A stretch of DNA of 64,000 nucleotides from an uncultured delta proteobacterium (GTDB taxonomy: Bacteria > Desulfobacterota > Desulfomonilia > UBA1062). Under the pieces are notes generated by a model. That model made no database searches, was not told the DNA's origin, and saw only the letters and a list, made by a program, of their open reading frames with translations. The position numbers and the translations under genes were made by a program. Shown here in pieces: positions 14,723 to 37,187 of this stretch. Where the stretch lies: the NCBI GenBank assembly GCA_963785235.1, contig CAWAUM010000011.1, positions 96,001 to 160,000 of the forward strand, written 5' to 3'. The number at the start of each line of letters is the position of its first letter. The stretch's first letter is position 1.

Positions 14723-16232
14723 TCACTCAAACCGGAAAAGGTGGCCGCAATGGGTACAGTTGAACTGAGGAAGCTTGAATGCAGGTGATACCTGGACTAT
14801 CCGGCCGCAACTGATGCAGGTGAAACTTTGCCAGGTCCCGGGGATCCTTGTCTCTTCCTGGTACCCCTTAATCAGGGCATCAGTCTTTGCCTTCTGCGGT
14901 TTTTCCGGTTGCCCGGGTCTTGAAAAGGCAGCCGTATCGGCCAGGATGGCGGACATGGCCTGCTGATCGGCCACTTTCACCGTGTGGGGCCTGTTGCACC
15001 GGGGGCATCTGATTTCTCCGCGGGCGAATTCAGGGGGGATCTTCATCTTCATCCCGCATTCGCAGGCAATGAAGACGAACTGGTTCATGGCCCTGATAAT
15101 GTCTCCGGCCTTCCCGGCATTCACCCGAGAACCCGGCTGGGATTGCACGGTTGGCGGGGAAGGCTCGCGTATGCGCAATCCCAACACCCAGCTTCATGTC
15201 GGATGCAGCGATCAATTCCTTATGCGTATGGGTCACGGTCCAATAAGCCTTTACATAATCTTTGAACGCGGCCCCTGTACTCATGAGCCGCAGGATCTTT
15301 ATCCTCTGCCCCAAAGGCGGGTGGGTGGCAAACACAGAGTCATCCAGGTCCTGTTTGTAGGGGTTTGCTATGTAGAACGGAGCGGTTGCCTTGGGGGCGG
15401 TAGTGAGTTTTTCCGGGGACAGCATGATCTTTTCCAGCGCGCAGGCCAGACCTTCCGGGTACCTTGTCAACCTGGCGCTCGTGGCATCGGCCAGGTATTC
15501 GCGGCTGCGGGATATGGTGAAGTAGAGGATGCGTGAAAGGATGGGGCTGAAGATGACAAGGAAGAAACCGAGCACAATCAGCCATACATTGATCAGGCCC
15601 TTGCCCGCCCTGGATGCCGATGAGCGGTACCGGGCAACGGGGGCGTACCGCAAAGAGTGGAGAAAGCTGTCTGCGATGAGGGTAACAGCGCCCAGCATGG
15701 TCGCTGCGACCGTCATAAAGAGAACGTCGCGGTTGATGATATGGCCCATCTCGTGGGCGACCACCCCCTGAAGCTCATCCCTGCTGCACATGGCAAGCAG
15801 GCCGGCTGTCACGCAGATGCTGCTGTCTTCGGGTGATTTTCCCACGGCAAAGGCATTGGGGGCCGGGTCGTCGATGATGTAGATATCAGGCATCTTCGGC
15901 AGTGAGGATGCAATCTTCATCTCCTCGATGATGTTGTAGAGCTGCGGGTAAAGGTCATGGGTAACCTCTTTGGCGCCCGAGAGGCTTAGAAAAAGCTGAT
16001 CCGAGCCCAACAGGCCCGTCAGGAGAAGCCCCAACCAGATGGCAAGGGCCACACACAGGCCTATGTATCCGGCCTTGAAGGTATCTTCTGCCTGTTGCGG
16101 GGCTGATATGAAACCGCTCCAGATATTGACAAGCTCGCCCACAAAAAATCCGAGCAGGGCAAGGACCATCCCCATGATGAGGACCAGGAGCACGGTCTTG
16201 CGTTTGTTCGCCTCGGCGATCTGCAGGAACAT
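14723..16232 (-). CDS. HtpX-like M48 metalloprotease with C-terminal zinc-ribbon domains (frameshift near 15180)
   Basis: Motifs PNAFAVG, VVAHEMGH, SRSREYLAD and THPP; C-terminal CECG/CPRC/CISC/CTHC in the adjacent frame. Confidence 0.85.
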
Positions 16233-16237
16233 GGCTG

Positions 16238-16805
16238 TCAGTGGAAGGTGACCTTGGGTACGGTGCGTTCCGTGGTGTCGGTCTATCTCGAAGGACACCT
16301 CCTTCCTGAAGGTGAACATGCCTGCAACGATACTTGAAGGGAACATCTCGATTTTATTGTTCAGAAAGAGCACTGCATCGTTGTAGGCCTGGCGGGCAAA
16401 GGCTATGCGGTTCTCGGTAGAGGCAAGCTCCTCCTGTACGGCAAGGAAATTCTGGTTGGCCTTGAGCTCGGGGTAATTCTCCACTATGACCATGAACCGT
16501 GATATGGCCTCGCTGAGCCTGGACTCGGCCTGTGCGATCTGGGGTATACCCTTAGCGCCGGTTGCCTCGGATCGAGCCTTGGTTACGGCCTCAAAGGTTC
16601 CCCGCTCATGTCCCATATATCCTTTTGCGGTCTCCACCAGGTTGGGGATAAGGTCGTGCCTGCGCTTGAGCTGGACATCGATCTGCGACCAGGAGTTCTT
16701 TACCAGGTTCCTCAGGCCTATGAGTGAATTATAGGCAGTTATCAGGTAAAGGACTATAAAGATAAGGATACCAATGATCACCCAGAACACGATTGTTCCT
16801 GTCAT
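16238..16805 (-). CDS. lemA: LemA family protein (3' frameshift causes apparent fusion to M48)
   Basis: Motifs YNSL...SWSQIDVQLKRRHDLIPNLVE and ENYPELKANQNF; the typical PKVTF* end lies in the shifted frame. Confidence 0.92.
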
Positions 16806-17468: not shown

Positions 17469-18825
17469 TCACTCTTTCTTATCCATCTTCCGGTACAGGG
17501 TCCTTGTCGATATTCCCAGCAGTTTGGATGCCAGGCCCTTGTCGCCCTTGGTGCGCTTGAGGGTCTCTTCCATGAGGATGCGCTCCACCTCCTCCATGGG
17601 CGTGCCAAGCGGGATGGTTACGGATTCCATGGCCGGGATGCTCTCCGAGAGGATATCAGCAGGCAGGTCATCGGCGCCGATGATGCCGTCCCGGTCGAGT
17701 ACTACGCTGCGTTCGATTACATTTTCCAGCTCCCGGACATTGCCCGGCCATTCATAGCCTAAGAGGATCTCCATGGCCTTGGATTCGAGCCCTTTCATTT
17801 CCTTGCCGTTCTTTCGGGAAAACCGGTTGATGAAGTGCTGGACCAGGTTAGGGATATCCTCCCTGCGTTCCTTTAAGGATGGGAGCTGCAGAGAGATGAC
17901 ATTAAGTCTCCAATAGAGGTCTTCGCGGAACTGGCCCTGCTTCACCATGGCGGCAAGGTCCTTGTTGGTGGCGGTGATGATGCGGACATCCACCTTGACG
18001 GTCTTGTTGCTGCCGAGCCGTTCAAAGGTTTCCTCCTGGAGGATCCGCAGCAGCTTTACCTGAACCGCAGGCGGGACTTCACCGATCTCATCCAAGAAGA
18101 TGCTTGATTTGTCCGCAGCCTCAAAGCGGCCTTCCTTTCTGCCCGCAGCGCCGGTGAAAGCGCCTTTTTCGTAGCCGAAAAGCTCCGACTCGATGAGCGT
18201 CTCAGGGATAGCAGCGCAGTTGACCTTGACCATGGGGCGTTCGGCCCTGGGCGAGAACTTGTGGATCATGTCGGCAATCACTTCCTTGCCCGTGCCCGAG
18301 GCTCCCATGATGAGGATCGTGGCCTGGCTCGGGGCCACCTGATGCACGATCTCCACGAGTTTCTTCATCTTGGGGCTTGCGGTCTCGATAAGGGGGGTTG
18401 ATTCAATGGCCTCGATGCGTTCCTTCATCTTGACGTTGTCCATGGTGAGGACCTGCTTCTCGATGGCCTTTTGGACCGCCTTCAAAATATCCGCCTTCTT
18501 GAAGGGCTTGGTGATATAGTCGTAAGCGCCCTGCTTCATGGAATCTACCGCGGTGTCCACCGAGGCATAGCCTGTAATCATAATGACCTCGGTGTAGGGG
18601 GAGATGGACTTGCATACCTTGAGCAGCTCAAGCCCGTCCATGCCGGCCATGCGGATGTCCGAGATAAGGAGGTCGATATCGCTAGCCGCGTATGAGCTTG
18701 AATGCCTCATCTCCGTTGGACGCGGTCACCACGTCAAACCCCTCTTTTTCAAGGATCTTCTTCAGGGACTGCCGGATGCCTATTTCATCATCAACTACCA
18801 GGATCTTTTTAGTCAGGTTGCTCAC
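17469..18825 (-). CDS. Sigma54-dependent NtrC-family response regulator (frameshift near 18685)
   Basis: REC domain (KILVVDDE, LLISDIRM, KP), AAA domain (GASGTGKE, GAFTGA, FLDEIGE) and Fis HTH; GTG start. Confidence 0.93.
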
Positions 18826-19877
18826 GGCTCAAATGGGTCCTTTTTTTGGGTTTCGATTTTTATTTTATTCCTGCCTTCTTCTATGATGATCTCTTCAAAG
18901 ATGGTCTTTCCTGCGGTAGAAGTTGCGTACACATAATATTTGCCGGGCTTTACTGTTTGGATGGTTGCCCTGTTCTTTTTCGGATCGACAGCTCCTTTGT
19001 AGCGCATCGACGCCTTTTTCAACTCGTTCGATCTGGTTTTGAAATCACTGATGACACCCTTGGTATCTCGCTCAAAGAGACCCCTGGCAGTTGCAAGTGC
19101 CTCGGTTTTTGCTTTATTCTCATCATGTGCCCGGGCAGATGCCCCCTGGTATGCCGCCAGGACATCGGCAAAGGCCTCTTTCACGTCCATGACCTTGGTC
19201 TGGCCTTTATACCCTTTCTGGGAGACAAAGTGGAGATCAGTAACCTCGAAGGATAAACCACCCGGCATGGAGGTCTTGATGCGGTCGATGTCCTTGTCCG
19301 TGAGTTCGCTGAGGAAGAAAGAAAGGTGCTCAAGATCAGCGCCCTGATTCGTGAGGCTTTCGCCGGGGGCCAGGCCGGAAATAAGATTCTTGGAGTTGAT
19401 GAATTCGAGCACGAGCATGGTGGTGATGGGCAGCGGTGTATTGCCGATGAGCGGCTTGTATATGATGTCGCTGATGACCTTGTCCGAGTTGTTGTGCACC
19501 GTATAGGTGAAGGTAATTTCACCCAGGGCCGATGCCTTGGTGATCTGTGCATTGGCGGAATGGATCGTGATGGGGATCTTGGCGATATAGTGCTTTCTCA
19601 AGCTGTCGATCTTTTCTTTATAGGCCTTGTCGGACTGGACAACCTGCAGGGCTGATGCCTTCAATTCGGACTCGAGTCTGCTTATCTGGTAGCGATTATT
19701 TTCTTCCTTGAGCCCCGAGTTCAACCTTTCCTTGAGATGATCCAGCACTGCAAGGGTTCCGCTCGAGAGGAGCTCAACCTCGGTGATGCCCTGGGGGACC
19801 GTTACAACAAGCCTGGCCGGAAAGGCGCTGATGGGAAGCAGGAGCAGGAAACATATGGTGGTCAAAAGTAATCTCAT
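18822..19877 (-). CDS. Hypothetical exported protein within the two-component operon
   Basis: Signal peptide MRLLLTTICFLLLLPISAFPA preceded by GGAGG; translationally coupled on both sides. Confidence 0.75.
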   Translation of the reverse strand: MRLLLTTICFLLLLPISAFPARLVVTVPQGITEVELLSSGTLAVLDHLKERLNSGLKEENNRYQISRLESELKASALQVVQSDKAYKEKIDSLRKHYIAKIPITIHSANAQITKASALGEITFTYTVHNNSDKVISDIIYKPLIGNTPLPITTMLVLEFINSKNLISGLAPGESLTNQGADLEHLSFFLSELTDKDIDRIKTSMPGGLSFEVTDLHFVSQKGYKGQTKVMDVKEAFADVLAAYQGASARAHDENKAKTEALATARGLFERDTKGVISDFKTRSNELKKASMRYKGAVDPKKNRATIQTVKPGKYYVYATSTAGKTIFEEIIIEEGRNKIKIETQKKDPFEP

Positions 19878-19878
19878 A

Positions 19879-22047
19879 TCACGCCTCCGCCAGAGTCTTT
19901 TCTTCTTCCGGATGGAAGGGGACTGAAAAGATAAAGGTCGATCCTGTCCCCTTCTGGCTTTCCACATCGACCCACCCGTCATGGGCGTTTGCAATGTACT
20001 GGACAAGGGACAGACCGAGGCCTGTGCCATTGTCCTTGGTGGTGAAATACGGGTCGAATATCCTCCTGGAGATCTCAGGGGGGATGCCGTATCCGGTATC
20101 CTTCACCAGGAGCAGGAAGTTGTCTTTGATCCCCATGAGGGATATCTCCAAACTGCCTCCAGAGGGCATTGCATCTTCCGCATTCTTAATGAGGTTTATC
20201 AAAAGCTGCTTGAATTGTCCACGGTCTATCATGATATTCGGCAGCCTTTCCTGGCATACGATGGCCGTTTCGATGGCTCTTCGCTTGAGCTCGGGCAGCA
20301 GCATGGACACTACGGTGGACACCTCGGTCTCCGGGTTTACGAGCTGTTTTTTCGGGCGTGGGAGGCGGGCATAGGACAGGTACTCGTCAGTGATCTGGGA
20401 GAGACGGTCAATCTCTTCCTTGATAATCCGGACGAGCTCAAGGCCCTCCTCGTTTTTGTCGTGCTCCTTGAGCTCGTCCTCCAGCAGTTCGGAATGGAGC
20501 AATATGGAGGTCAAAGGGTTGCGGATCTCGTGGGCCACATGGGCCGACATCTGGCCTACGGCTGCGAGTTTCTCAGCCTGTATGAGCTTCTCTGTGAGCG
20601 CCTTCTTATCCGTGATATCCACCGCATACTGGACAACATAGTCCACCTCACCCTTTGATCCGAACAAGGGGATGGCGCTCATATCGAAGAAGTAGGGCTT
20701 GCCGAGGATATCCATTCGTGTGTCCCTTTCGGTGACGATTCCTGCGCTTTTAAAGCACTTTTCCACGAGCCTGGTGTTGCAGATGCGCTCGTTTTCGGAA
20801 AAATCAAGGGAGCAGTGCTTGTCGATCACGTCTTCCCTCTTCAGGCCATAGAGGTCGCACAGACGCTGGTTGATGTCCGTGATGGTAAAGGCGGCATCGA
20901 TCATGGCCAGGTAATGCGGCACGCCGTTGAAGATGGTCTCCATCCGCTTGTGGGCTACAAGGACCTTGTCCGCCCACTTATTCCTCTCAGAGGCCCCGGC
21001 CCGGGCCCTGTTGATCCTGAGCATGATGATGGTTGCTATCAGCACGAAGCCTATGCTCACCGAGCCTAACATGAGGGTGTTGCGGAAGGTGCCGGACATG
21101 AGCGAGATGACCTCGCGGTACGGCGAAGTAGAGATGGTGACCCATCTTCTATTGAGAAAATGCACCGAAGAGAAGGCCAGGAGCTTTTTCGCCGGCTCTT
21201 TTTCAGGGTAGCTGGGGAAGATGAACTCATGCATGCCGTCATTTTTCAGGGTCATGGCATCCTGGATGGCATCCACGCCCGATATCTTTAAGCCCTGCTT
21301 CTTGAGCCCGATGATCACATCATTCAGATTGAGCCCGATCCATTTCGGGTTGGGGTGGTAGAGGATCATGCCTGTCTCGTCGAGCATCCAGACATAACCG
21401 GATTTTGACGGCCTGATGGGTGCTACATAGTGGGCAGTGATATTCGACAGGTCGATGGCACAGCCGATTACACCATGGAATTTACCATCATCGCCCTTTA
21501 AGGGGAAAGAGATGATAAAGGTCTCGAAGCGTCCGGGTATATCGTAATACTGTTCTCCCCCCACCATGATGATGTCCGAGACATAGGGGACATTAAGCTC
21601 CCTGGCCACACGGAAATAGGTCCTGAAGCTGAAATCTTTGCCCTCGAGCCCCGGGAGGAGTTGTCTGGGGTAGTGGTAGCGCATGATGCCGCTTTTGTCC
21701 TCCCAGAACACGAATATCACCTTGCTCTTCAATGAGTTGAAAACATTCTGAACCGATACCCTGATGGCCTCAGGATCGCCGTTGGATACCCCTTTGATGT
21801 GGGCGGTGAGGCTCAGGCTGTTGGTGATGTCGTGCATATACTGCTCGATACCCATGGCTGTCTGCTGGGCCAGCAGACCCTGCTCGCGGTTGAACTGGGC
21901 TGCCATTTCCCTCTCGACGCCGTGGTAGGAGTACATGGCGAACATGATCACGAAGCCGAGAACAATAAAGGTGCCCAACCAGATGAGGATATCCCACTTG
22001 GTCTCTTTGAGTTCTATGGTATGCCGCTTTGTCGTATTTTGTCTCAT
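19879..22047 (-). CDS. Sensor histidine kinase (Cache, PAS, HisKA, HATPase)
   Basis: Two TMs around a Cache-like domain; H-box AHEIRNPL, N-box NLIKNA, DTGYG and GTGLGL. Confidence 0.93.
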   Translation of the reverse strand: MRQNTTKRHTIELKETKWDILIWLGTFIVLGFVIMFAMYSYHGVEREMAAQFNREQGLLAQQTAMGIEQYMHDITNSLSLTAHIKGVSNGDPEAIRVSVQNVFNSLKSKVIFVFWEDKSGIMRYHYPRQLLPGLEGKDFSFRTYFRVARELNVPYVSDIIMVGGEQYYDIPGRFETFIISFPLKGDDGKFHGVIGCAIDLSNITAHYVAPIRPSKSGYVWMLDETGMILYHPNPKWIGLNLNDVIIGLKKQGLKISGVDAIQDAMTLKNDGMHEFIFPSYPEKEPAKKLLAFSSVHFLNRRWVTISTSPYREVISLMSGTFRNTLMLGSVSIGFVLIATIIMLRINRARAGASERNKWADKVLVAHKRMETIFNGVPHYLAMIDAAFTITDINQRLCDLYGLKREDVIDKHCSLDFSENERICNTRLVEKCFKSAGIVTERDTRMDILGKPYFFDMSAIPLFGSKGEVDYVVQYAVDITDKKALTEKLIQAEKLAAVGQMSAHVAHEIRNPLTSILLHSELLEDELKEHDKNEEGLELVRIIKEEIDRLSQITDEYLSYARLPRPKKQLVNPETEVSTVVSMLLPELKRRAIETAIVCQERLPNIMIDRGQFKQLLINLIKNAEDAMPSGGSLEISLMGIKDNFLLLVKDTGYGIPPEISRRIFDPYFTTKDNGTGLGLSLVQYIANAHDGWVDVESQKGTGSTFIFSVPFHPEEEKTLAEA

Positions 22048-27586: not shown

Positions 27587-30295
27587 TCACGGCAGGCCCC
27601 TTCTTTCCCTCCTGCGGACAAAGAACTTCTCAATACCCACTACCACCATTATCAGGGAAGCCGCGGCAAGAATGCGAACCCAGGAATCGAGGCCGATGGG
27701 TCTGCTGTGAAAGGCGGTGTTCATGGCAGGCACATAGGTGAAGAGCAGCTGAAGGATGAACATTAGACCAGCCCCGCCGAACACCGAGAGATTGGAGAAG
27801 AACCCCACCTCGAAAACGGATTTCGTGAGAGACCGGCAGTTGAAAAGGTACATGAGTTCGCCCATGACGAACACGTTCACCGCCACGGTCCTGGCCTCTG
27901 CTATGCCTGTACCGCTGGATAATTCATACTCGAAGAGCCCGAATGCACCCAGAAGCAGCAGGAAACCCACGATGGCGATCCGCCATATGAGCGTGCGGGT
28001 GAGGATGGGCTCTTTCGGGTCGCGCGGCGCCCTCTTCATGATGCCCGGCTCCTTGGGTTCGAACACCAGCATGAGGCCCAGCAGCACGGCCGTAGTCATG
28101 TTGATCCACAGGATCTGCACCGGCAGGATGGGCAGGGTCACCCCCGCGAATATGGCCGCCAGGATCACCAGACCCTCGCCGATGTTTGTGGGCAGGGTCC
28201 AGACGATGAACTTGGTGAGGTTGTCGAAGGTTCCCCTGCCTTCCTCCACCGCCGCCTCGATGGATGCGAAGTTGTCGTCGGTGAGCACCATGTCCGAGGC
28301 CTCCTTGGCCACGTCCGTGCCCGTGATGCCCATGGCCACGCCGATATTGGCCCGCTTCAGGGCGGGCGCGTCGTTCACCCCGTCGCCGGTCATGGCCACG
28401 ATGTTTCCCCTTGCCTGCAGGGCCTCCACCAGGCGGAGCTTCTGCTCGGGGGCCACCCGGGCAAACACCGATACGTCCTCCACGATATCGATGATCTCAG
28501 CGTCGCTGATGCTGCCAGCTCCCTGCCGGTGACAACCTTCCCTGCATTGTGCAGGCCGATCCTGGCTGCGATGGCCGAGGCGGTGAGCGCATGGTCGCCG
28601 GTGATCATCTTCACGTGGATGCCGGCACTGTGGCAGTTCCTGCACCGCTTCGACGGCCTCGTTCCGGGGCGGGTCGATCATCCCCTGCAGCCCCAGGAAG
28701 GTCAGCCCCGAGGCGATATCCTTGTGGTCGATCTTTTCCCTGCCGTCCTCAATGGCCTTCCGGGCAAAGGCAAGCACCCTGAGCCCTTTGGCGGCCATGG
28801 CGTCCACGGCCGCGTGGATGGCCGCAGTATCCAGATCAACTGGAGAGCCCTGCGGGTCCAGGGCCGAGGTGCAGCGCTCCAGCAGCGCCTCGACCGATCC
28901 CTTGACAAACGCCACGGCGGTCCTCCCCGGCAGATCGCCATGCAGGGTGGCCATGTACTGGTGGTGCGATTCAAAGGGGATGGTGTCGAGACGCCTGAAC
29001 CGGGCACTCTCCTGCTCCATGAAAAGGCCGGCCTTTGCCGCTGCGGCAATGAGGGCCCCCTCGGTGGGGTCGCCCTGCACGGTGAGGCGCTCCTCCTTTT
29101 CCACGAGCAGGCTGTCGTTGCACAGCAGGCCGCACCTGAGTGTCTCCATGAGAGCCTCGGACAGAGGGCCGTCTGATTGAGCGTCTGCACGGACGATCTC
29201 GCCCTCAGACGCATAGCCGGTACCGCTCACCGTATATGCATCACTGCCGGCAGCGATCTCCTGGACCGTCATCTGGTTCTCGGTGAGCGTGCCTGTCTTG
29301 TCCGAGCAGATGACCGTGGTGCTGCCCAGGGTCTCCACGGCCGGCAGCTTGCGGATGATGGCCCGCCTCCTGGCCATGCGCGCCACGCCGATGGCGAGCG
29401 TGATGGTCATGGCTGCGGGCAGGCCCTCAGGGATGGCGCCCACGGCAAGGGCCACGGCTGCCATGAACATCTCGAAGGCACTCTGGCCTCTCAGCATACC
29501 CACCGCAAAGGTGGCCAGCGGCAAGCCCCAGGATCAGGTAGAGCAGGATCCTGCTGAATTCCGCGATCTTCTGAAGAAGCGGGGTCTCGAGTTCTTCGGT
29601 GGAAGAGATAAGCTCCGAGATGCGGCCCACCTCCGTGTTGTCGCCGATGGCCACCACCACGCCCGAAGCCTGTCCGTAGGTGACCAGGGCCGAGCCGTAG
29701 ACCATGTTCTTCCGGTCGGCCAGGATCGTATCGTGGGGAAGCTGCGCTGTGTCCTTCTCAACGGCCACGGACTCCCCGGTGAGCGCCGACTCGTCCACCT
29801 GCAGGTCCCGGGCAGGCGATCAGGCGCATATCCGCAGGGACCTTGTCTCCCGGACTGGAGCAGGACAATGTCGCCCGGCACCACCTCGGCAGAGGATATC
29901 CTCGTCTTTGCTCCCGAGCGCACGACCGTCGCTTCGGTGACCATGGTCTTTGCCAGGGCCTCCATGGCCTTGACCGCCTTGGCCTCCTGGATGAAGCCTA
30001 TGATCGCATTGACTATCACAACACCGAAGATGACCCCGGCGTCCACCCATTCCTGGAGCAGGGCCGTGATGAGCCCGGCCGCCAGAAGGATATAGACCAG
30101 GGGCTGGTGGAACTGCAGGAGAAACCGGAGCAGGGGGCTCTTGCCCTTCTTAGTGGTCAGGACATTATAACCGAAGCGCTCGCGCCGGTGGTTGATTTCG
30201 AAGAGGTCAAGGCCCCGCTCACGATCGCTTTCCAGGAGATCGACCACCTCGTCGGCTGGCAGGTAGTGCCAGTGTTTCCCGATCAGTTTATCCAT
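27587..30295 (-). CDS. Cation-transporting P-type ATPase (type IIA, Ca2+/Mn2+-like), several frameshifts
   Basis: Motifs [41 protein letters not shown] and ILWINM, distributed over several frames. Confidence 0.92.
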
Positions 30296-30348
30296 GACGT
30301 TCCTTTTAGCCCAGTGTTTTGAAACCAGCGACGTTCTCAATCTCTTCT

Positions 30349-30371
30349 GAGTAACTTCAAAAAAGTTACTC
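30349..30371. promoter_or_regulatory. Perfect palindrome upstream of the P-type ATPase (candidate operator)
   Basis: GAGTAACTT-caaaa-AAGTTACTC, about 55 bp upstream of the ATG. Confidence 0.45.
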
Positions 30372-30422
30372 TATGAGAAAGCGCCGTCCAGGCGGTGTGG
30401 GACGCTATTTATTTACGTATCC

Positions 30423-30620
30423 TTAACCGGCAATACGCTTAACGGACTTGTCAGCAATTAGGTCGTTCAGTTCCTGCATCAGCACTCGTTCATGCGCATC
30501 AATCACACCGTCAGCATGGATCAACTCAAAGATCTCTTCGTACTCTGAGTTCGTGATAACATGGTCATCAATGGCTTTCTTAATGATCTCTTCAAGTTTT
30601 TTTCCGCTCTTGGTAAGCAT
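30423..30620 (-). CDS. Small acidic TerB-like protein
   Basis: RBS GGAGG; the repeated AIDDHVIT..E / HADGVIDAHE motif is typical of TerB-like helical hairpins. Confidence 0.7.
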   Translation of the reverse strand: MLTKSGKKLEEIIKKAIDDHVITNSEYEEIFELIHADGVIDAHERVLMQELNDLIADKSVKRIAG

Positions 30621-30892
30621 CTACCTTCCTCCATGCGCAGTCTGTATTGTTTGCAGCAAATTATCATATCTCACCATCTTTTTCCAGAAATTTCAATAGA
30701 TAACATGCCATCCACATGCCCTGATGTTGAGCGCCCGTGAAGCATAGATCTTGACTCAAGAAGCAGCTCTTATCGGACCTAAAAGGTTTGGTGCCACCAT
30801 AAACTAGTACAGCTGACCGGTTGGCTTCATCAATACAGGGTTTATTGTATAATTGCAGGGGGAACAGGTATTGATTGGCAAATCCCGGTCTT

Positions 30893-30987
30893 TGCCATTC
30901 TGACAATCTTAGCAGTGCCCCTGAGGTCATTTTGTCATTTTGTACCCACCCACATCCTTGCAGGGAGCTTTTTTTGCCAAAATGACA
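30893..30987. promoter_or_regulatory. Candidate enhancer (bEBP UAS) sites
   Basis: TGCCA-TTC-TGACA (30893), GGTCA-TTT-TGTCA (30925) and TGCCA-AAA-TGACA (30975), upstream of a sigma54 promoter. Confidence 0.55.
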
Positions 30988-31022
30988 ATTCCAGGAAAGG
31001 CCATTACATGAATGTTTTATGA

Positions 31023-31035
31023 TATCAATAAGTTA
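31023..31035 (+). promoter_or_regulatory. IHF site
   Basis: TATCAATAAGTTA is an exact WATCAANNNNTTR match between the UAS and the -24 element. Confidence 0.6.
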
Positions 31036-31050
31036 TAAGTTGCCAGAACC

Positions 31051-31065
31051 TGGCACGCCCCTTGC
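31051..31065 (+). promoter_or_regulatory. Sigma54 -24/-12 promoter
   Basis: TGGCAC-GCCCC-TTGC, a consensus match. Confidence 0.85.
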
Positions 31066-31112
31066 CTTATATGAAGTAGAAAGAAAAAAAGAAACCCCAG
31101 GAGGGCAAGACA

Positions 31113-31289
31113 ATGATGACATTATGGATCGTAATCGGCGCACTGTTCATGACCGGCATAGGGATCAGGTTCACCTACAAGGTATTGGGACTCACCCCGG
31201 TAGAAGCAAGCGCGGTATTCGTCCTGGTGGTCGCCCTGGTAACCATCAACACCGGCCCGGCACGTGAGATCCTCATGAGCCTGTTCTAA
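31113..31289 (+). CDS. 58-aa two-TM membrane protein (not in the ORF track)
   Basis: RBS AGGAGG; MMTLWIVIGALFMTGIGIRFTYKVLGLTPVEASAVFVLVVALVTINTGPAREILMSLF; similar to the 32154-32429 product. Confidence 0.8.
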   Translation: MMTLWIVIGALFMTGIGIRFTYKVLGLTPVEASAVFVLVVALVTINTGPAREILMSLF

Positions 31290-31329
31290 GGCAGGACTCA
31301 GATAGAAAAAAAGGATAAGGAGGAAGGCC

Positions 31330-31569
31330 ATGAAGACAAAGAAAGAAAAGATCGAAAAGGCACTGGCCAACAGGCTCAGCAGGATAAGCGCATACAGCCT
31401 GGTGCTCGTTATGATGACCTTCCTCGGACTCTACGGCGGCATGTATCTGGACAGGGTTCTCGGCATGGCACCCAACTTCACGATGGTAGGACTGGTGGCC
31501 GGCATAGCACTGGGCTTCAAGGGGTTCATCGAAGAGGTCGTGATCGAGAGAAAGGTAAAGAGGGCATAG
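31330..31569 (+). CDS. AtpZ/AtpI-family small membrane protein
   Basis: GLYGGMYLDRVLGMAPNFTMVGLVAGIALGF matches the G..LD...T.P.F...G...G pattern; RBS AAGGAGG. Confidence 0.8.
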   Translation: MKTKKEKIEKALANRLSRISAYSLVLVMMTFLGLYGGMYLDRVLGMAPNFTMVGLVAGIALGFKGFIEEVVIERKVKRA

Positions 31570-31571
31570 CC

Positions 31572-31676
31572 ATGACAGTCATCTTTGTAATTGTTGGCTT
31601 CACGGCATTCCTGGCCCTGACTGCACGGTTCGTGAAACGCGCAGGGCATGCTGCCAGGGCAGCGCAGATCCGGTAA
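31572..31676 (+). CDS. Putative 34-aa single-TM small protein
   Basis: MTVIFVIVGFTAFLALTARFVKRAGHAARAAQIR starts 2 nt after the previous stop and ends before the terminator. Confidence 0.5.
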   Translation: MTVIFVIVGFTAFLALTARFVKRAGHAARAAQIR

Positions 31677-31727
31677 TCGAACAGGCCTCCAGCGAACTTC
31701 CTCCCCGGGAACGATCCATATCACACA

Positions 31728-31757
31728 CCACGGCCCCGAAAGGGTCGTGTTTTTTTA
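31728..31757 (+). terminator. Intrinsic terminator of the left mini-operon
   Basis: CACGGCCCC-GAAA-GGGTCGTG followed by TTTTTTT. Confidence 0.8.
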
Positions 31758-31857
31758 TTCAACTGATTATCCTGCGAGAAGCAACGGGCCGCCTTGAGGG
31801 CGACCCGCATTCGTGATGTAGGCTGCCGGATTGTAACCCGGCTTTCTTGAGTATCGA

Positions 31858-32121
31858 CTAGGACTGGTATCTGACCCTGCGGTTGTTCAACTCATCTTTG
31901 GCCTTTGTGTAGTCCGTGAACATCCGTGCAAAGCACAATCCCATGCCCAGCACAAACAAACCAAGCATGAAGGTCGGTTCCGTATTGAACTTCACATCGA
32001 TCCACCGGCCTGCGAACAGGAACAGGAACGAGGAGATAACCAGGGTGAAGCTCCATGCGCTCAGCAGGATGATCTGATTCAGCGTCTTGGTCTGGAGTCT
32101 GTTTCTTCGTACCCTTTTCAT
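31858..32121 (-). CDS. AtpZ/AtpI-family small membrane protein (second copy)
   Basis: AGRWIDVKFNTEPTFMLGLFVLGMGL pattern; RBS GGAGG. Confidence 0.8.
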   Translation of the reverse strand: MKRVRRNRLQTKTLNQIILLSAWSFTLVISSFLFLFAGRWIDVKFNTEPTFMLGLFVLGMGLCFARMFTDYTKAKDELNNRRVRYQS

Positions 32122-32153
32122 GGCCTCCCCTCCTTTTTTTATTGATAATCTTC

Positions 32154-32429
32154 TCAGCTGATCATGCCTTTAACTGCTTCAAGGACCGGAGCAGTGAACA
32201 AGGCCACGAGCACGGCATACAGTGCGAAAGATCCGATTGCCTCACTGATATAAATCTTCTCATAGCGATACTTCAAAGAAATGATGGTGAGCCCGCCCAT
32301 GATCAGACAACCAAGGTGGAAGTACGGTAAGCTGTTGCCGCCGGAAACTGCTGTTGCTGCAAAAGCAAACGTACCAGTGATCATTACCACGAACATTGCT
32401 ACGATTATTGTCTGGATTGTCCTTTTCAT
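32154..32429 (-). CDS. 91-aa membrane protein with signal-like leader, paralogue of 31113-31289
   Basis: RBS GGAGG; leader ...TFAFA|A followed by two hydrophobic segments ending SEAIGSFALYAVLVALFTAP. Confidence 0.8.
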   Translation of the reverse strand: MKRTIQTIIVAMFVVMITGTFAFAATAVSGGNSLPYFHLGCLIMGGLTIISLKYRYEKIYISEAIGSFALYAVLVALFTAPVLEAVKGMIS

Positions 32430-32468
32430 TGTCTGACCTCCACTTTGTTTTTTTATACTATTTATAAG

Positions 32469-32483
32469 GCATACATTGTGCCA
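32469..32483 (-). promoter_or_regulatory. Sigma54 -24/-12 promoter
   Basis: Minus strand TGGCAC-AATGT-ATGC, followed by CTTAT as in the left promoter; 40 bp upstream of the ATG. Confidence 0.8.
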
Positions 32484-32844
32484 ACTCTGTGGCATGTGAG
32501 CATAATACCTTTCATCATATTGTTAATATTGATTATTAGATGAATTTCCATTCATCTGAGATCCGGTAGAAACATATAAAAACCATGATTCATTCGATGG
32601 AATGTTCAAAGGGATTGAATGAAACGTGTGAAATGCAGGACAACAAGTTGAATAAGAGTCCCTCGAGGGTCGACATTGATTAAGACCGTAAAAATCCTCT
32701 AAAACGAAAATATCGCAAATCTCACTTCAAGGTTAAAACCCTAGTCTCAAGCTTATAAAATAAATCAGTACGCCTAAAAAACAGTACACCATAAAACCAA
32801 TACAGAAGCCAATCTACAACGATATTACCATATATTTTTTCATA

Positions 32845-32876
32845 TAAAAAAAGGAGAGGGTCTGTAAACCCTCTCC
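32845..32876 (-). terminator. Terminator of the tRNA operon
   Basis: GGAGAGGG-loop-CCCTCTCC hairpin with an A-run on + (U-tract on -). Confidence 0.8.
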
Positions 32877-32879
32877 GTG

Positions 32880-32955
32880 TGGTGGGCCATCCTGGGCTCG
32901 AACCAGGGACCTACTGATTAAGAGTCAGTTGCTCTACCAGTTGAGCTAATGGCCC
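32880..32955 (-). tRNA. tRNA-Lys(CUU)
   Basis: Reverse complement GGGCCATTAGCTCAACTGGTAGAGC...CT-CTT-AA...CCA. Confidence 0.96.
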
Positions 32956-32966
32956 ATATCTATCTT

Positions 32967-33043
32967 TGGTACGCCCGGGGCGACTCGAACGCCCGACCTG
33001 CGGATTCGAAGTCCGACGCTCTATCCAACTGAGCTACGGGCGC
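32967..33043 (-). tRNA. tRNA-Arg(UCG)
   Basis: Reverse complement GCGCCCGTAGCTCAGTTGGATAGAGC...CT-TCG-AA...CCA. Confidence 0.93.
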
Positions 33044-33055
33044 TCACCTTCAAAT

Positions 33056-33132
33056 TGGGGTGAGTGAAGGGGATCGAACCCTCGACCGCAGGAGCCACAA
33101 TCCTGTGCTCTACCATCTGAGCTACACTCACC
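33056..33132 (-). tRNA. tRNA-His(GUG)
   Basis: G-1, anticodon loop TT-GTG-GC, C discriminator and CCA. Confidence 0.96.
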
Positions 33133-33140
33133 ATATGCTC

Positions 33141-33217
<77 letters not shown>

Positions 33218-33234
33218 CCACTTAGGCCCCGCTA

Positions 33235-33312
<78 letters not shown>

Positions 33313-33509
33313 TAGTGGAGCCTTATAGCAGAGGGTCTTAGGGCATGGCAAGCACTTTTTCCGCAGGGAAAATGCCAAGCAACTGATTAATTTAATTCAA
33401 TAAAAATAAAGCGTCTCAAAATCCAATGCATACCATTGCAGCGAGGTAAGTAGGAGAAAATCATGACAACAAGGAGGGTCTGGCGCCTCAGATACAAACC
33501 GGGTGATCT

Positions 33510-35392: not shown

Positions 35393-36170
35393 ATGAAGGA
35401 CGTGCAGAAACAGAAGCCGGACAATCCCTTGTACATCGAGAAGGTGGGAGTCAAAGGGATCAGCTACCCCATCGTGGTATCCGACAAGAAGAAAGGCTCC
35501 CAGCACACGGTGGCCTCCATCAGTCTTTCCGTGGATCTGCCCCGGGAATTCAAGGGCACGCACATGAGCCGTTTCATCGAGGTGCTCAACGAGCATAAGG
35601 AAGAGATCCATATCAAGAACTTCGAGCATATCTTAAATGAGATCAAGCGTTCTCTGGAGGCCGAGAGCGCCCACATGGAGATCGAGTTTCCCTATTTCAT
35701 CGAGAAGGAGGCCCCGGTGACCGGGGCTGTAGGTCTCATGGAATACACGTGCTCGCTCATGGGCATGGTCGGCTGCAAAGCGGGAGTTCAAGGTGGGCGT
35801 GAAGGTCCCTATCCAGACGCTCTGCCCGTGCTCCAAGGAGATCAGTGATTTCGGTGCCCATAACCAGCGGGGCATCGTGACGGCAGTAGTGCGTTACGAG
35901 AAGTTCTTCTGGATGGAGGATCTCATCGGAATCATCGAGGGCTGCGGGTCAAGCCCGGTTTATCCCGTTCTCAAGAGGCCCGATGAGAAATTCGTCACGG
36001 AACATGCCTACCAGAATCCCAAGTTCGTGGAAGACGTTGTCCGGCAGGTGGCATCCATCCTGAGCGTCAGGGACGAGTTCTCCTGGTTTTCGGTGGAGGC
36101 GGAGAATTACGAGAGCATCCACAACCATAGCGCATACGCATATATCGAGAGCGAACAGACGCATGGCTGA
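35393..36170 (+). CDS. folE2: GTP cyclohydrolase IB (frameshift near 35780)
   Basis: Motifs [38 protein letters not shown] and ESIHNH. Confidence 0.93.
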
Positions 36171-37187
36171 AGATGTTCTGCCCCTGGGCAAGCTCCCCGT
36201 CGAACTCCTCCGGCAATTCCTTCAAGGGCTCCCCGAAACTCACCCGGATGTGATCGTGGGGCCGGGCATAGGCATGGACGCTGCGGTTATCCGCTTCGGT
36301 CAGGAGCAGCTGGTCTTCAAGACCGACCCCATCACCTTTGCCGCGGATGACATCGCCTGGTACCTCGTCACCATCAATGCCAACGACATTGCCTGCATGG
36401 GCGGTATCCCGAAATACCTCCTTGCAACCTTCCTCCTGCCCCAGGGCGCAACGACGCCAGTAACGCGCTTCAGCCATTTTTTCACGGCTCAAAGAGGCAT
36501 GCGAAGCAGGCGGAATCACCCTTGTGGGCGGTCATACCGAGATCACCCATGGGATCGAGCGGCCTATTGCCGTCGGGTTCATGATAGGTACCATATCCAG
36601 GCACGGCATCATCCGTTCCTCCGGTGCAAAACCTGGTGACGCCATCCTCCTGAGCAAGGGCATACCCCTTGAGGCAACTGCGCTCCTGGCGCGTGAGTTC
36701 GCCCATAAGCTGGGCCTCGATGAAGATACCCTGAAACAGGCGCAGGACCTTATCTATACCCCGGGCATCAGCGTGGTGGCCGATGCCCGGATCGCGCTGG
36801 AGACAGGCGGTGTTACCGCCATGCATGACCCCACCGAGGGCGGCCTTGCCACCGGGCTCTCTGAGCTTGCAGGCGCCAGCGGGTGCGGCGTGGAGGTGCA
36901 CCTGGAGAACATCCCTGTTATCGATCTTGCAGATAGGATCCTGAGCGTCTTTTCTATTGACCCTCTGGGCGCCCTGGCATCAGGATCCTTAATCGTGTGC
37001 TGCAAACCCGAAAATGCCGGGGCCATCCTTTCGGCCTGGGAGGAGGCCGGGATCAAAGGCGCCCTCATCGGGCACCATGACTTCATCGCCTGGGCTCATC
37101 CTCTACCGGGATGGGAAAGCCGGGCCTCTGCCGGAGTTCAAGGCGGACGAGATTACTAAGGCTTTTAAACCCGGATGTTGCAGGTGA
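36163..37187 (+). CDS. AIR-synthase-related (HypE-like) protein, two frameshifts
   Basis: Motifs [39 protein letters not shown] and DEI. Confidence 0.85.

Follow-up and report, generated by a model that had tools for sequence, protein, structure and literature searches.

Multicopy cassettes encoding small predicted hairpin membrane proteins under sigma54-type promoters in Desulfomonilia and Syntrophales

The stretch of DNA analysed here (the window; 64,000 nucleotides of contig CAWAUM010000011.1 from an uncultured delta proteobacterium) contains, within positions 31113-32429, a convergent pair of small operons, which we call cassette A (+) and cassette B (-). Each begins with a gene, recognized from its open reading frame (ORF), its homologues and their conservation, for a small protein predicted to form a two-helix hairpin in the membrane: pA, of 58 amino acids (aa), at 31113..31289 (+), and pB, of 91 aa, with a signal-peptide-like leader, at 32154..32429 (-). 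Profile comparisons indicate that pA and pB are homologous and constitute two branches of one lineage-restricted small hairpin family, and the genome carries seven pA genes (type-A cassettes) and five pB genes (type-B cassettes), each gene or operon being a predicted sigma54-dependent transcription unit. The reading that we tentatively prefer, and to which we give somewhat less than an even chance, is that pA and pB play a stoichiometric, probably oligomeric role in the membrane and alter its permeability or energetics upon a specific signal.

Homology, conservation and predicted fold of pA and pB

A BLASTP comparison of pA with pB yields an E-value of 3.1 only. By profile-profile alignment with hhalign, the two proteins match over 53 columns (79.7%, E 1.5e-5), and with more diverse alignments the match reaches 91.4% (E 8.9e-7); in both cases Glu31 of pA falls on Glu63 of pB, and Pro49 on Pro81. 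Judged by these profiles, the likeness of the two proteins exceeds chance. The second-helix peptides quoted in a preliminary description of this DNA were exact on re-reading (pA includes LGLTPVEASAVFVLVVALVTINTGP and pB includes IYISEAIGSFALYAVLVALFTAP), and the spacing it had noticed by eye is found without gaps in both proteins: Glu, Ala at +1, Phe at +5, Leu at +7, Leu at +11, Val at +12, Thr at +16 and Pro at +18. The 91-aa protein also has the cleavable-looking leader ascribed to it, which ends in FAFA-A, the hyphen marking the apparent cleavage point.

The Glu, whose invariance across homologues the preliminary description had named as a point to check, is present in 120 of the 120 best pA matches and 120 of the 120 best pB matches, in all 13 pA cluster representatives whose sequence reaches that position, and in 79 of the 79 pB genes of the named genomes. 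It is one among many invariant residues of the two families: 11 of 16 tallied positions of pB are identical across all 79 genes, and pB proteins of Desulfomonilia and of Syntrophales share 58-64% identity. For a membrane protein, this degree of conservation is very high. The ratio of nonsynonymous to synonymous polymorphism (pN/pS, uncorrected) is 0.27 for pA over 36 distinct coding sequences (CDS) and 0.22 for pB over 34 CDS, indicating purifying selection on both.

The family appears to be new to the databases, being without a Pfam or NCBIfam family. At E<=10, pA, pB and sA (a small ORF of cassette A, see below) match zero Pfam families, and against NCBIfam they give noise only (e.g. CrcB 0.11, PspM 2.2). 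Literature searches found no paper on proteins of the pA/pB type, and a term search of Kazakov et al. 2015 (PMC4641369) gave zero matches. The ESM Atlas, queried with pB, returned the unnamed clusters of the family itself, and the next named match, a rhodopsin fragment at 0.78, carries no weight. Two variant proteins were seen: a divergent 64-aa pB-like protein without leader, encoded 5' of a zB-like gene in another family, and a metagenomic protein of 93 aa (P0250), in which pA residues 1-43 are joined to the C-terminal two thirds of a protein resembling zA, the AtpZ-like companion of pA; P0250 may be a genuine fusion or may result from a frameshift in the assembly.

AF2 models predict a two-helix hairpin for pA and, after the leader, for pB. 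In pA (predicted local distance difference test, pLDDT, 92), helices 2-25 and 29-57 are separated by the turn G26-L27-T28; in pB (pLDDT 69), the helices are 2-28, 37-55 and 61-90, with the turn at 56-60, and the profile alignment of pA with pB superposes both turns. The Glu would be the third residue of helix 2, 2-3 residues past the turn and 4-5 past the basic loop residues. In pA it belongs to a T-P-x-E arrangement, which resembles a helix capping box; in pB it comes 5 residues after the last basic loop residue, and in a divergent member with KKIRNSE-LIIVLILFVILVALFTAP (KKIRNSELII) it is placed likewise. In these models the whole hydrophobic span would consist of the 18 residues from Glu to Pro, and the carboxylate is predicted at the cytoplasmic boundary at the start of helix 2, away from mid-membrane. 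This placement is a prediction from shallow alignments, and pA alone permits an alternative register with the loop at R19-K23. Structure searches with the pA model gave ZapA and other generic hairpins in VIA-align wide (best Z 6.2) and nothing at E<=0.001 in Foldseek against PDB, a two-helix hairpin being too simple for such searches to inform.

Promoters, copies and AtpZ-like companions of the cassettes

Upstream of pA, an activator region at 30893..30987 (+) contains three TGNCA-N3-TGNCA-type sites (30893-30905, 30933-30945 and 30975-30987). A sigma54-type -24/-12 promoter, TGGCAC-gcccc-TTGC, follows at 31051..31065 (+), and between the two stands ATCAATAAGTTA at 31024..31035 (+), an ATCAA-N4-TTA element that we take to be a putative site resembling those of the integration host factor (IHF). 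Cassette B has its own sigma54-type -24/-12 promoter, TGGCAC-aatgt-ATGC, at 32469..32483 (-), and an activator region at 32583..32627 (-), read as ACGTTTCATTCAA ... TTGAACATTC ... TTGAATGAA. This architecture recurs at other loci. Of 35 distinct pA upstream regions, 34 have TGGCAC-N5-TTGC at -54 to -64 and agree with the consensus at 9 or more of its 10 positions; the remaining region agrees at 8. For pB, 32 of 33 distinct upstream regions have a sigma54-type promoter, as do 75 of 77 pB genes of the named genomes (54 by regular expression and 21 read from printout, with N-TGC at -12). The IHF-like element recurs upstream of both pA and pB genes; the three-site pattern is conserved before pA genes at diverged loci, and ACGTTTCATTCAA ... 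TTGAACATTC is kept before pB genes, with TTGAACGTTTCTTTCAA in other families of the phylum. With GG at -24 and GC at -12 at fixed spacing, activator sites and an IHF-like site, each pA or pB gene or operon is thus predicted to be a sigma54-dependent transcription unit.

Among 200 sigma54-like promoter candidates of the genome, pA-type sites occur solely before the seven pA cassettes and pB-type sites solely before four of the five pB cassettes, which suggests one activator per cassette type, with no other targets. Enhancer-binding proteins are encoded by about 32 genes of this genome, as judged from 34 PF00158 matches. At one of its pA copies (locus L104, G000:C2:32000-42500), genes for a histidine kinase, an NtrC-type enhancer-binding protein and Amidase_3 lie directly upstream on the same strand; assigning this NtrC-type protein as the regulator by adjacency was rejected, since none of 20 further pA loci has one within 6 kb. 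In another genus, three genomes have an Amidase_3 orthologue at ~2.2 kb from pA. In the window itself, genes for a LemA-M48 peptidase fusion, a dCache/PAS histidine kinase and an NtrC-type enhancer-binding protein are neighbours, and this group (15030-16805 (-), 17469-22047 (-)) is situated ~9-16 kb from the cassettes.

The convergent pair of cassettes A and B is present at three loci of the genome. The repeated DNA runs from ~30890 to ~31753 for A and on to ~32632 for A plus B, with 90-94% identity between copies. Its limits coincide with the predicted features, so the unit spans exactly the stretch from the first activator site to the terminator, an intrinsic-terminator-like hairpin with a T-run found by a terminator scan at the end of cassette A (31729..31749, +). 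A mobile-element reading of the repeats was rejected as the main explanation, with nothing found beyond this stretch and no terminal repeats noticed. An Rfam search of 30300-33500 gave five tRNAs and nothing else, so no riboswitch or small RNA accounts for the conserved upstream DNA; the tRNA genes (Lys-CTT, Arg-TCG, His-GTG, Arg-TCT and Pro-TGG, 32880-33312, -) adjoin cassette B.

Relatives carry 1-7 copies. Within the window's GTDB family, 49 of 52 genomes contain pA; in a 401-genome sample of the phylum it is strong solely in this family (5 of 6 genomes) and in one genome elsewhere, and the pA profile retrieved 15 proteins only from 1.84 billion cluster representatives. pB is present in 32 of 51 genomes of the family and in 16 of the 401 genomes of the sample, which belong to five families and mostly have 1-7 copies. 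Named species genomes contain pB in 288 stretches, from metagenome-assembled genomes (MAGs) of Desulfomonilia, Syntrophales and Syntrophaceae and from Smithella sp. SCADC and D17. Several of the matches lie at contig ends, as expected of repeats.

In the window, pA is followed by zA (79 aa, 31330..31569, +) and pB by zB (87 aa, 31858..32121, -). Both match PF09527 (ATPase_gene1, the AtpZ/AtpQ family; cut-off 26.6 bits), zA with E 6.3e-10 and 39.4 bits and zB with E 3e-9 and 37.2 bits, and they are homologous to each other (BLASTP 2e-10; hhalign 98.7%). Of the 121 genomes sampled from the phylum, 117 have PF09527, with 1-3 matches in all but four, and counts above 3 are confined to cassette carriers: this genome (14 in this count), G201 (6), G043 (5) and G155 (4). 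A search of this genome by itself gave 15 matches, seven in type-A and five in type-B cassettes and three in ordinary atp contexts, namely an AtpZ-AtpI pair beside a c-subunit gene, an N-ATPase-like AtpQ-AtpR pair and one more.

The core of each cassette is pA or pB, and the AtpZ-like gene is an optional member. In the window's family, it stands next to pB at 24 of 30 loci, the other six being standalone; across the 79 pB loci of the named genomes, 38 are paired, 36 are solo and five are at contig ends. For pA, 22 of 30 loci have it as a neighbour (eight do not, one of them at a contig end), as do 17 of 20 further loci, one with a partial gene. An AtpZ-like neighbour is thus lacking for roughly one in two pB genes and one in four pA genes, and for this reason the dedicated AtpZ partnership assumed in the preliminary description is not borne out. 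A complex prediction for zA with pA scored 0.00 without controls, which says nothing either way. Downstream of zA lies sA (31572..31676, +), a single-helix ORF of 34 aa with a basic tail, which is kept downstream in the other copies of this genome and in close relatives, and which directly follows pA, without zA, at two loci. Its pN/pS of 0.51, from 8 CDS only, weakly supports its coding status. A gene for single-stranded DNA-binding protein (SSB) was seen just downstream of solo pB genes in two relatives (L045, L051) and near one pA cassette of this genome (L108).

Contigs from four RNA libraries of three studies cover pA, zA and pB, and in one run also zB; in one wetland run the summed word depth over pA is ~740. 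These contigs have at least 85% likeness and come from relatives, and DNA carry-over is possible. They give zero cover upstream of ~31100, in the intergenic spacer and upstream of pB, a pattern that fits, weakly, transcripts bounded by the predicted promoters and terminator; the uncovered DNA was rejected as evidence for transcript ends.

Likeness to ATP-synthase c-subunits and other explanations

The preliminary description had likened pA and pB to truncated ATP-synthase c-subunits. For pA this is real at the motif level, with Glu on Glu and Pro on Pro without gaps, yet it is statistically marginal, and pB gives nothing. Searched against PDB, the pA profile has five matches at E<=10, all of them c-subunits (best E 0.019); c-subunit helix 2 is aligned to pA residues 19-42, and its proton-binding Glu pairs with Glu31. 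When the profile was made more diverse, six matches resulted, the top four c-subunits, at E 0.06-2.1. One of these four is the Na+ c-subunit from Ilyobacter tartaricus; profile positions 24-51 align to chain residues 58-85, and by this offset Glu31 would fall on chain residue 65, which we take to be the Na+-binding Glu65. The best E-value thus worsened with profile diversity, from 0.019 to 0.06, and none is significant, while the pB hairpin profile has zero matches in PDB.

A six-frame search of the 401 genomes gave a similar picture, with six marginal matches (per-genome E 5e-4 to 1e-3). Authentic c-subunits account for four of them; here 32-33 columns align without a gap, and Glu is matched to Glu and Pro to Pro. 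The remaining two, with the same score, are TRAP DctM permeases. In these fused permeases (L228:1855-4011 (-) and L229:642-2867 (+)), a segment G-x-x-x-LTGVG-x-RF-x-x-L-x-L resembles pA helix 1 and its turn at ~19-20 bits. The motif G-x4-E-x4-[FYW]-x-L-[VILM]-x9-P retrieves only the seven pA copies and two c-subunits from the 36,324 open frames of the genome; it was defined after the fact from both families and is circular by construction. In the comparison with ATP-synt_C (PF00137) that the preliminary description had proposed, none of 46 pA and none of 46 pB members gives a match at E<=10. Against 29 c-subunits of the phylum, hhalign gives 12% for pA (P 0.0023) and 1.6% for pB (P 0.031), to be compared with a P of 0.15 for the reversed control and of 0.005-0.06 for pairs of clearly unrelated small membrane families. 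On this evidence, the c-subunit likeness of pA and pB is a short, statistically marginal motif and not demonstrable kinship; even so, unbiased searches repeatedly bring up helix 2 of c-subunits as the closest match to pA.

Like AtpE, pA and pB are small two-helix hairpins of the same inferred topology, with a small-residue motif in helix 1 and an invariant Glu in helix 2, after which come an aromatic residue (+5), a Leu (+7) and a Pro (+18). The first helices contain glycines, as had been described (G9 and G15-x-G17 in pA; G40 and G45-G46 in pB), and the full GxGxGxG motif is absent. A leader on AtpE, as cited in the preliminary description, does exist in this lineage: three of the four c-subunit genes of the genome encode AFA-A-type leaders, similar to that of pB. 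The hhalign match of the pB leader to c-subunit leaders (74.8%, 29 columns) was not counted, as it reflects generic signal-peptide likeness. Unlike AtpE, pA and pB have no Pfam match and are short (58 aa for pA and ~66 aa for mature pB, against ~75-95 aa for the c-subunits compared). Their turn has 3-5 residues, GLT(P) in pA and Y-P/E-K-x-Y in pB, and is without the R-Q/N-P loop of the c-subunits of the phylum (RNP or RQP), which the preliminary description had rightly noted as missing. Their Glu is predicted next to the turn, whereas the c-subunit carboxylate lies in mid-membrane, and they are encoded in many copies with their own sigma54 promoter outside atp operons (0 of the 12 cassettes of this genome are within one). 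One pA cassette (L103, G000:C1:576500-587000) is located ~1.4 kb downstream of the ATP synthase alpha, gamma, beta and epsilon genes, with a toxin-antitoxin-like pair (TumE-like and HVO_A0114-like) in between. As a side observation on c-subunits, single frames of 326-420 aa with 4-6 consecutive ATP-synt_C matches were found in relatives, at G040:C90:10754-11956, G059:C6:134082-135245 and G043:C41:118968-120165, and may be either multi-hairpin fused c-subunits or read-through tandem genes.

Other small membrane proteins were compared with pA and pB. The cassettes recall the AtpZ and AtpI genes of Bacillus atp operons, reportedly involved in Mg2+ uptake, in that a PF09527 gene adjoins a gene for a small membrane protein; however, the gene order is reversed, atp genes are absent nearby and the pairing is facultative. 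pA and pB also differ from AtpI/UncI (PF03899), with no Pfam match and hhalign values of 0.2% (pA) and 0.9% (pB) against 22 AtpI proteins of the phylum, and this genome has a canonical AtpZ-AtpI pair at C1:341k, in a separate operon (G000:C1:339935-343090) that starts with AtpZ-AtpI and has a c-subunit gene just downstream. Two-helix proteolipids of the Pmp3/YqaE type, which are ~55 aa long, stress-induced and linked to membrane potential, are similar in size and fold, but there is no Pfam match at E<=10, and motifs, regulation and copy number differ. Passages of Dibrova et al. 2010 (PMC2881411) describe AtpQ as PF09527, occurring also beyond N-ATPase operons, propose AtpR and AtpI as c-ring helpers, and present AtpR as a small membrane protein whose helices contain charged residues and which would act on c-subunits. 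AtpR differs from pA and pB in its three Arg-containing helices and its restriction to N-ATPase operons, and neither pA nor pB has an AtpR Pfam match. A pair of the AtpQ-AtpR-like type is present in this genome as well, at C7:26.5k in an N-ATPase-like operon (G000:C7:25053-28214) that encodes AtpQ and an AtpR-like protein of 93 aa.

These comparisons bear on the proposal that pA and pB are derivatives or mimics of c-subunits, half-height hairpins without the cytoplasmic half and the F1 loop that would enter, cap or template the c-rings of several F/N-type ATPases and thereby tune their coupling. We consider this unlikely. The c-subunit matches in PDB and in the genomes, the invariant Glu in both proteins, the post-hoc motif and the leader-bearing c-subunits speak for it, as does the statement, in PMC2881411, that proteins of the AtpI/UncI type assist c-ring assembly. 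Set against this are the lack of any significant E-value or of any improvement with more diverse profiles, the failure of all 92 family members to match ATP-synt_C, hhalign P-values near those of unrelated small membrane families, the PDB blank for pB, the equally scored TRAP DctM permeases and the derivation of the motif from the two families themselves. In addition, a Glu 2-3 residues after the turn contradicts the geometric premise of a mimic, the RQP loop and the atp-operon context are both absent, and the AtpZ-like gene is missing at nearly as many pB loci as have it (36 solo and 38 paired of 79). A stricter form, in which pA and pB would be shortened c-subunit descendants that keep the outer helix halves and the carboxylate, are made in a sigma54-driven burst and co-assemble with or cap the c-rings of multiple F/N-ATPases, is to our mind improbable. 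If the c-ring reading were true, energy-limited syntrophs could transcriptionally uncouple, brake or remodel their rotary ATPases.

It is likewise doubtful that pA and pB, instead of forming free-standing oligomers, are small subunits that regulate or stabilise some other membrane machine, as KdpF and sarcolipin do with P-type ATPases. Cassette A is divergent from a P-type cation ATPase gene at 27587-30340 (-), another copy adjoins a Na+/H+ exchanger with a TrkA_C domain, and the extreme conservation would fit binding to a conserved partner; but a cation transporter is near only two of nine loci of this genome, the cassette copies have their own promoter and terminator, and their number is above that of any single partner gene. 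The P-type ATPase gene is split over two frames, as are genes for a folE2-type GTP cyclohydrolase and an AIR-synthase-related protein (further split-gene positions being 35393-36170 (+) and 36163-37159 (+)), which suggests assembly indel errors or pseudogenes. We find it harder still to believe in a membrane-damaging toxin-like or holin-like peptide silenced by a tight sigma54 switch, with the AtpZ-like protein as protection. Many near-identical copies of a small hydrophobic protein bring multicopy type I toxin loci to mind, and sigma54 promoters have very low basal activity. However, about half of the pB genes are without the partner, neither an antisense RNA nor a further Rfam element was found in 30300-33500, and strong purifying selection with conservation across orders fits a housekeeping-type response better than an addiction module.

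A tentative model and its implications

The results above show that pA and pB are homologous and under purifying selection, how their promoters are built, how many copies there are and where they occur, and that the AtpZ-like gene is optional; the topology, oligomerisation, signal and membrane effect in the following model are inferred. The hairpin would sit in the inner membrane with its N and C termini outside and its short basic turn in the cytoplasm, the invariant Glu being in the first turn of helix 2 and the invariant Pro, 18 residues on, at the outer end. RNA polymerase with sigma54 would switch on each gene or small operon as a self-contained unit, a dedicated enhancer-binding protein acting through the type-specific upstream sites and an IHF-like bend. 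A ribosome-binding site that is strong, together with as many as 12 copies in one genome, would permit a fast, massive burst of protein. The hairpins may then pack through the small-residue motif of helix 1 into membrane oligomers, which would change ion permeability or membrane energetics upon a specific signal, and the AtpZ/AtpQ-like protein, where present, could help with insertion or assembly, or be a co-subunit.

Several observations weigh against this oligomer model. The AlphaFold alignments are shallow (Neff 1.4-1.9), with a pLDDT of 69 for pB. The genes around the cassettes are heterogeneous and offer no functional hint, and an enhancer-binding protein is encoded within 6 kb of pA at none of the 20 further loci. 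Finally, the RNA-library contigs are no proof of transcription, and their non-coding gaps may reflect no more than divergence between relatives.

Whatever their function, pA and pB appear to be producible fast and in quantity on a specific signal, and these tiny membrane proteins form a multicopy family, strongly conserved and shared by Syntrophales and Desulfomonilia, with what is predicted to be a private sigma54 regulon. For annotation, this means that an "AtpZ-like" gene outside atp operons need not imply an ATP synthase function. Syntrophales and Desulfomonilia live near the thermodynamic limit and rely on a fine control of membrane energetics. Should their target be ion permeability or the rotor rings of ATPases, pA and pB would represent a new layer of bioenergetic regulation in these bacteria; if not, they would still offer a clean model of an enhancer-binding-protein regulon that consists of small proteins only.

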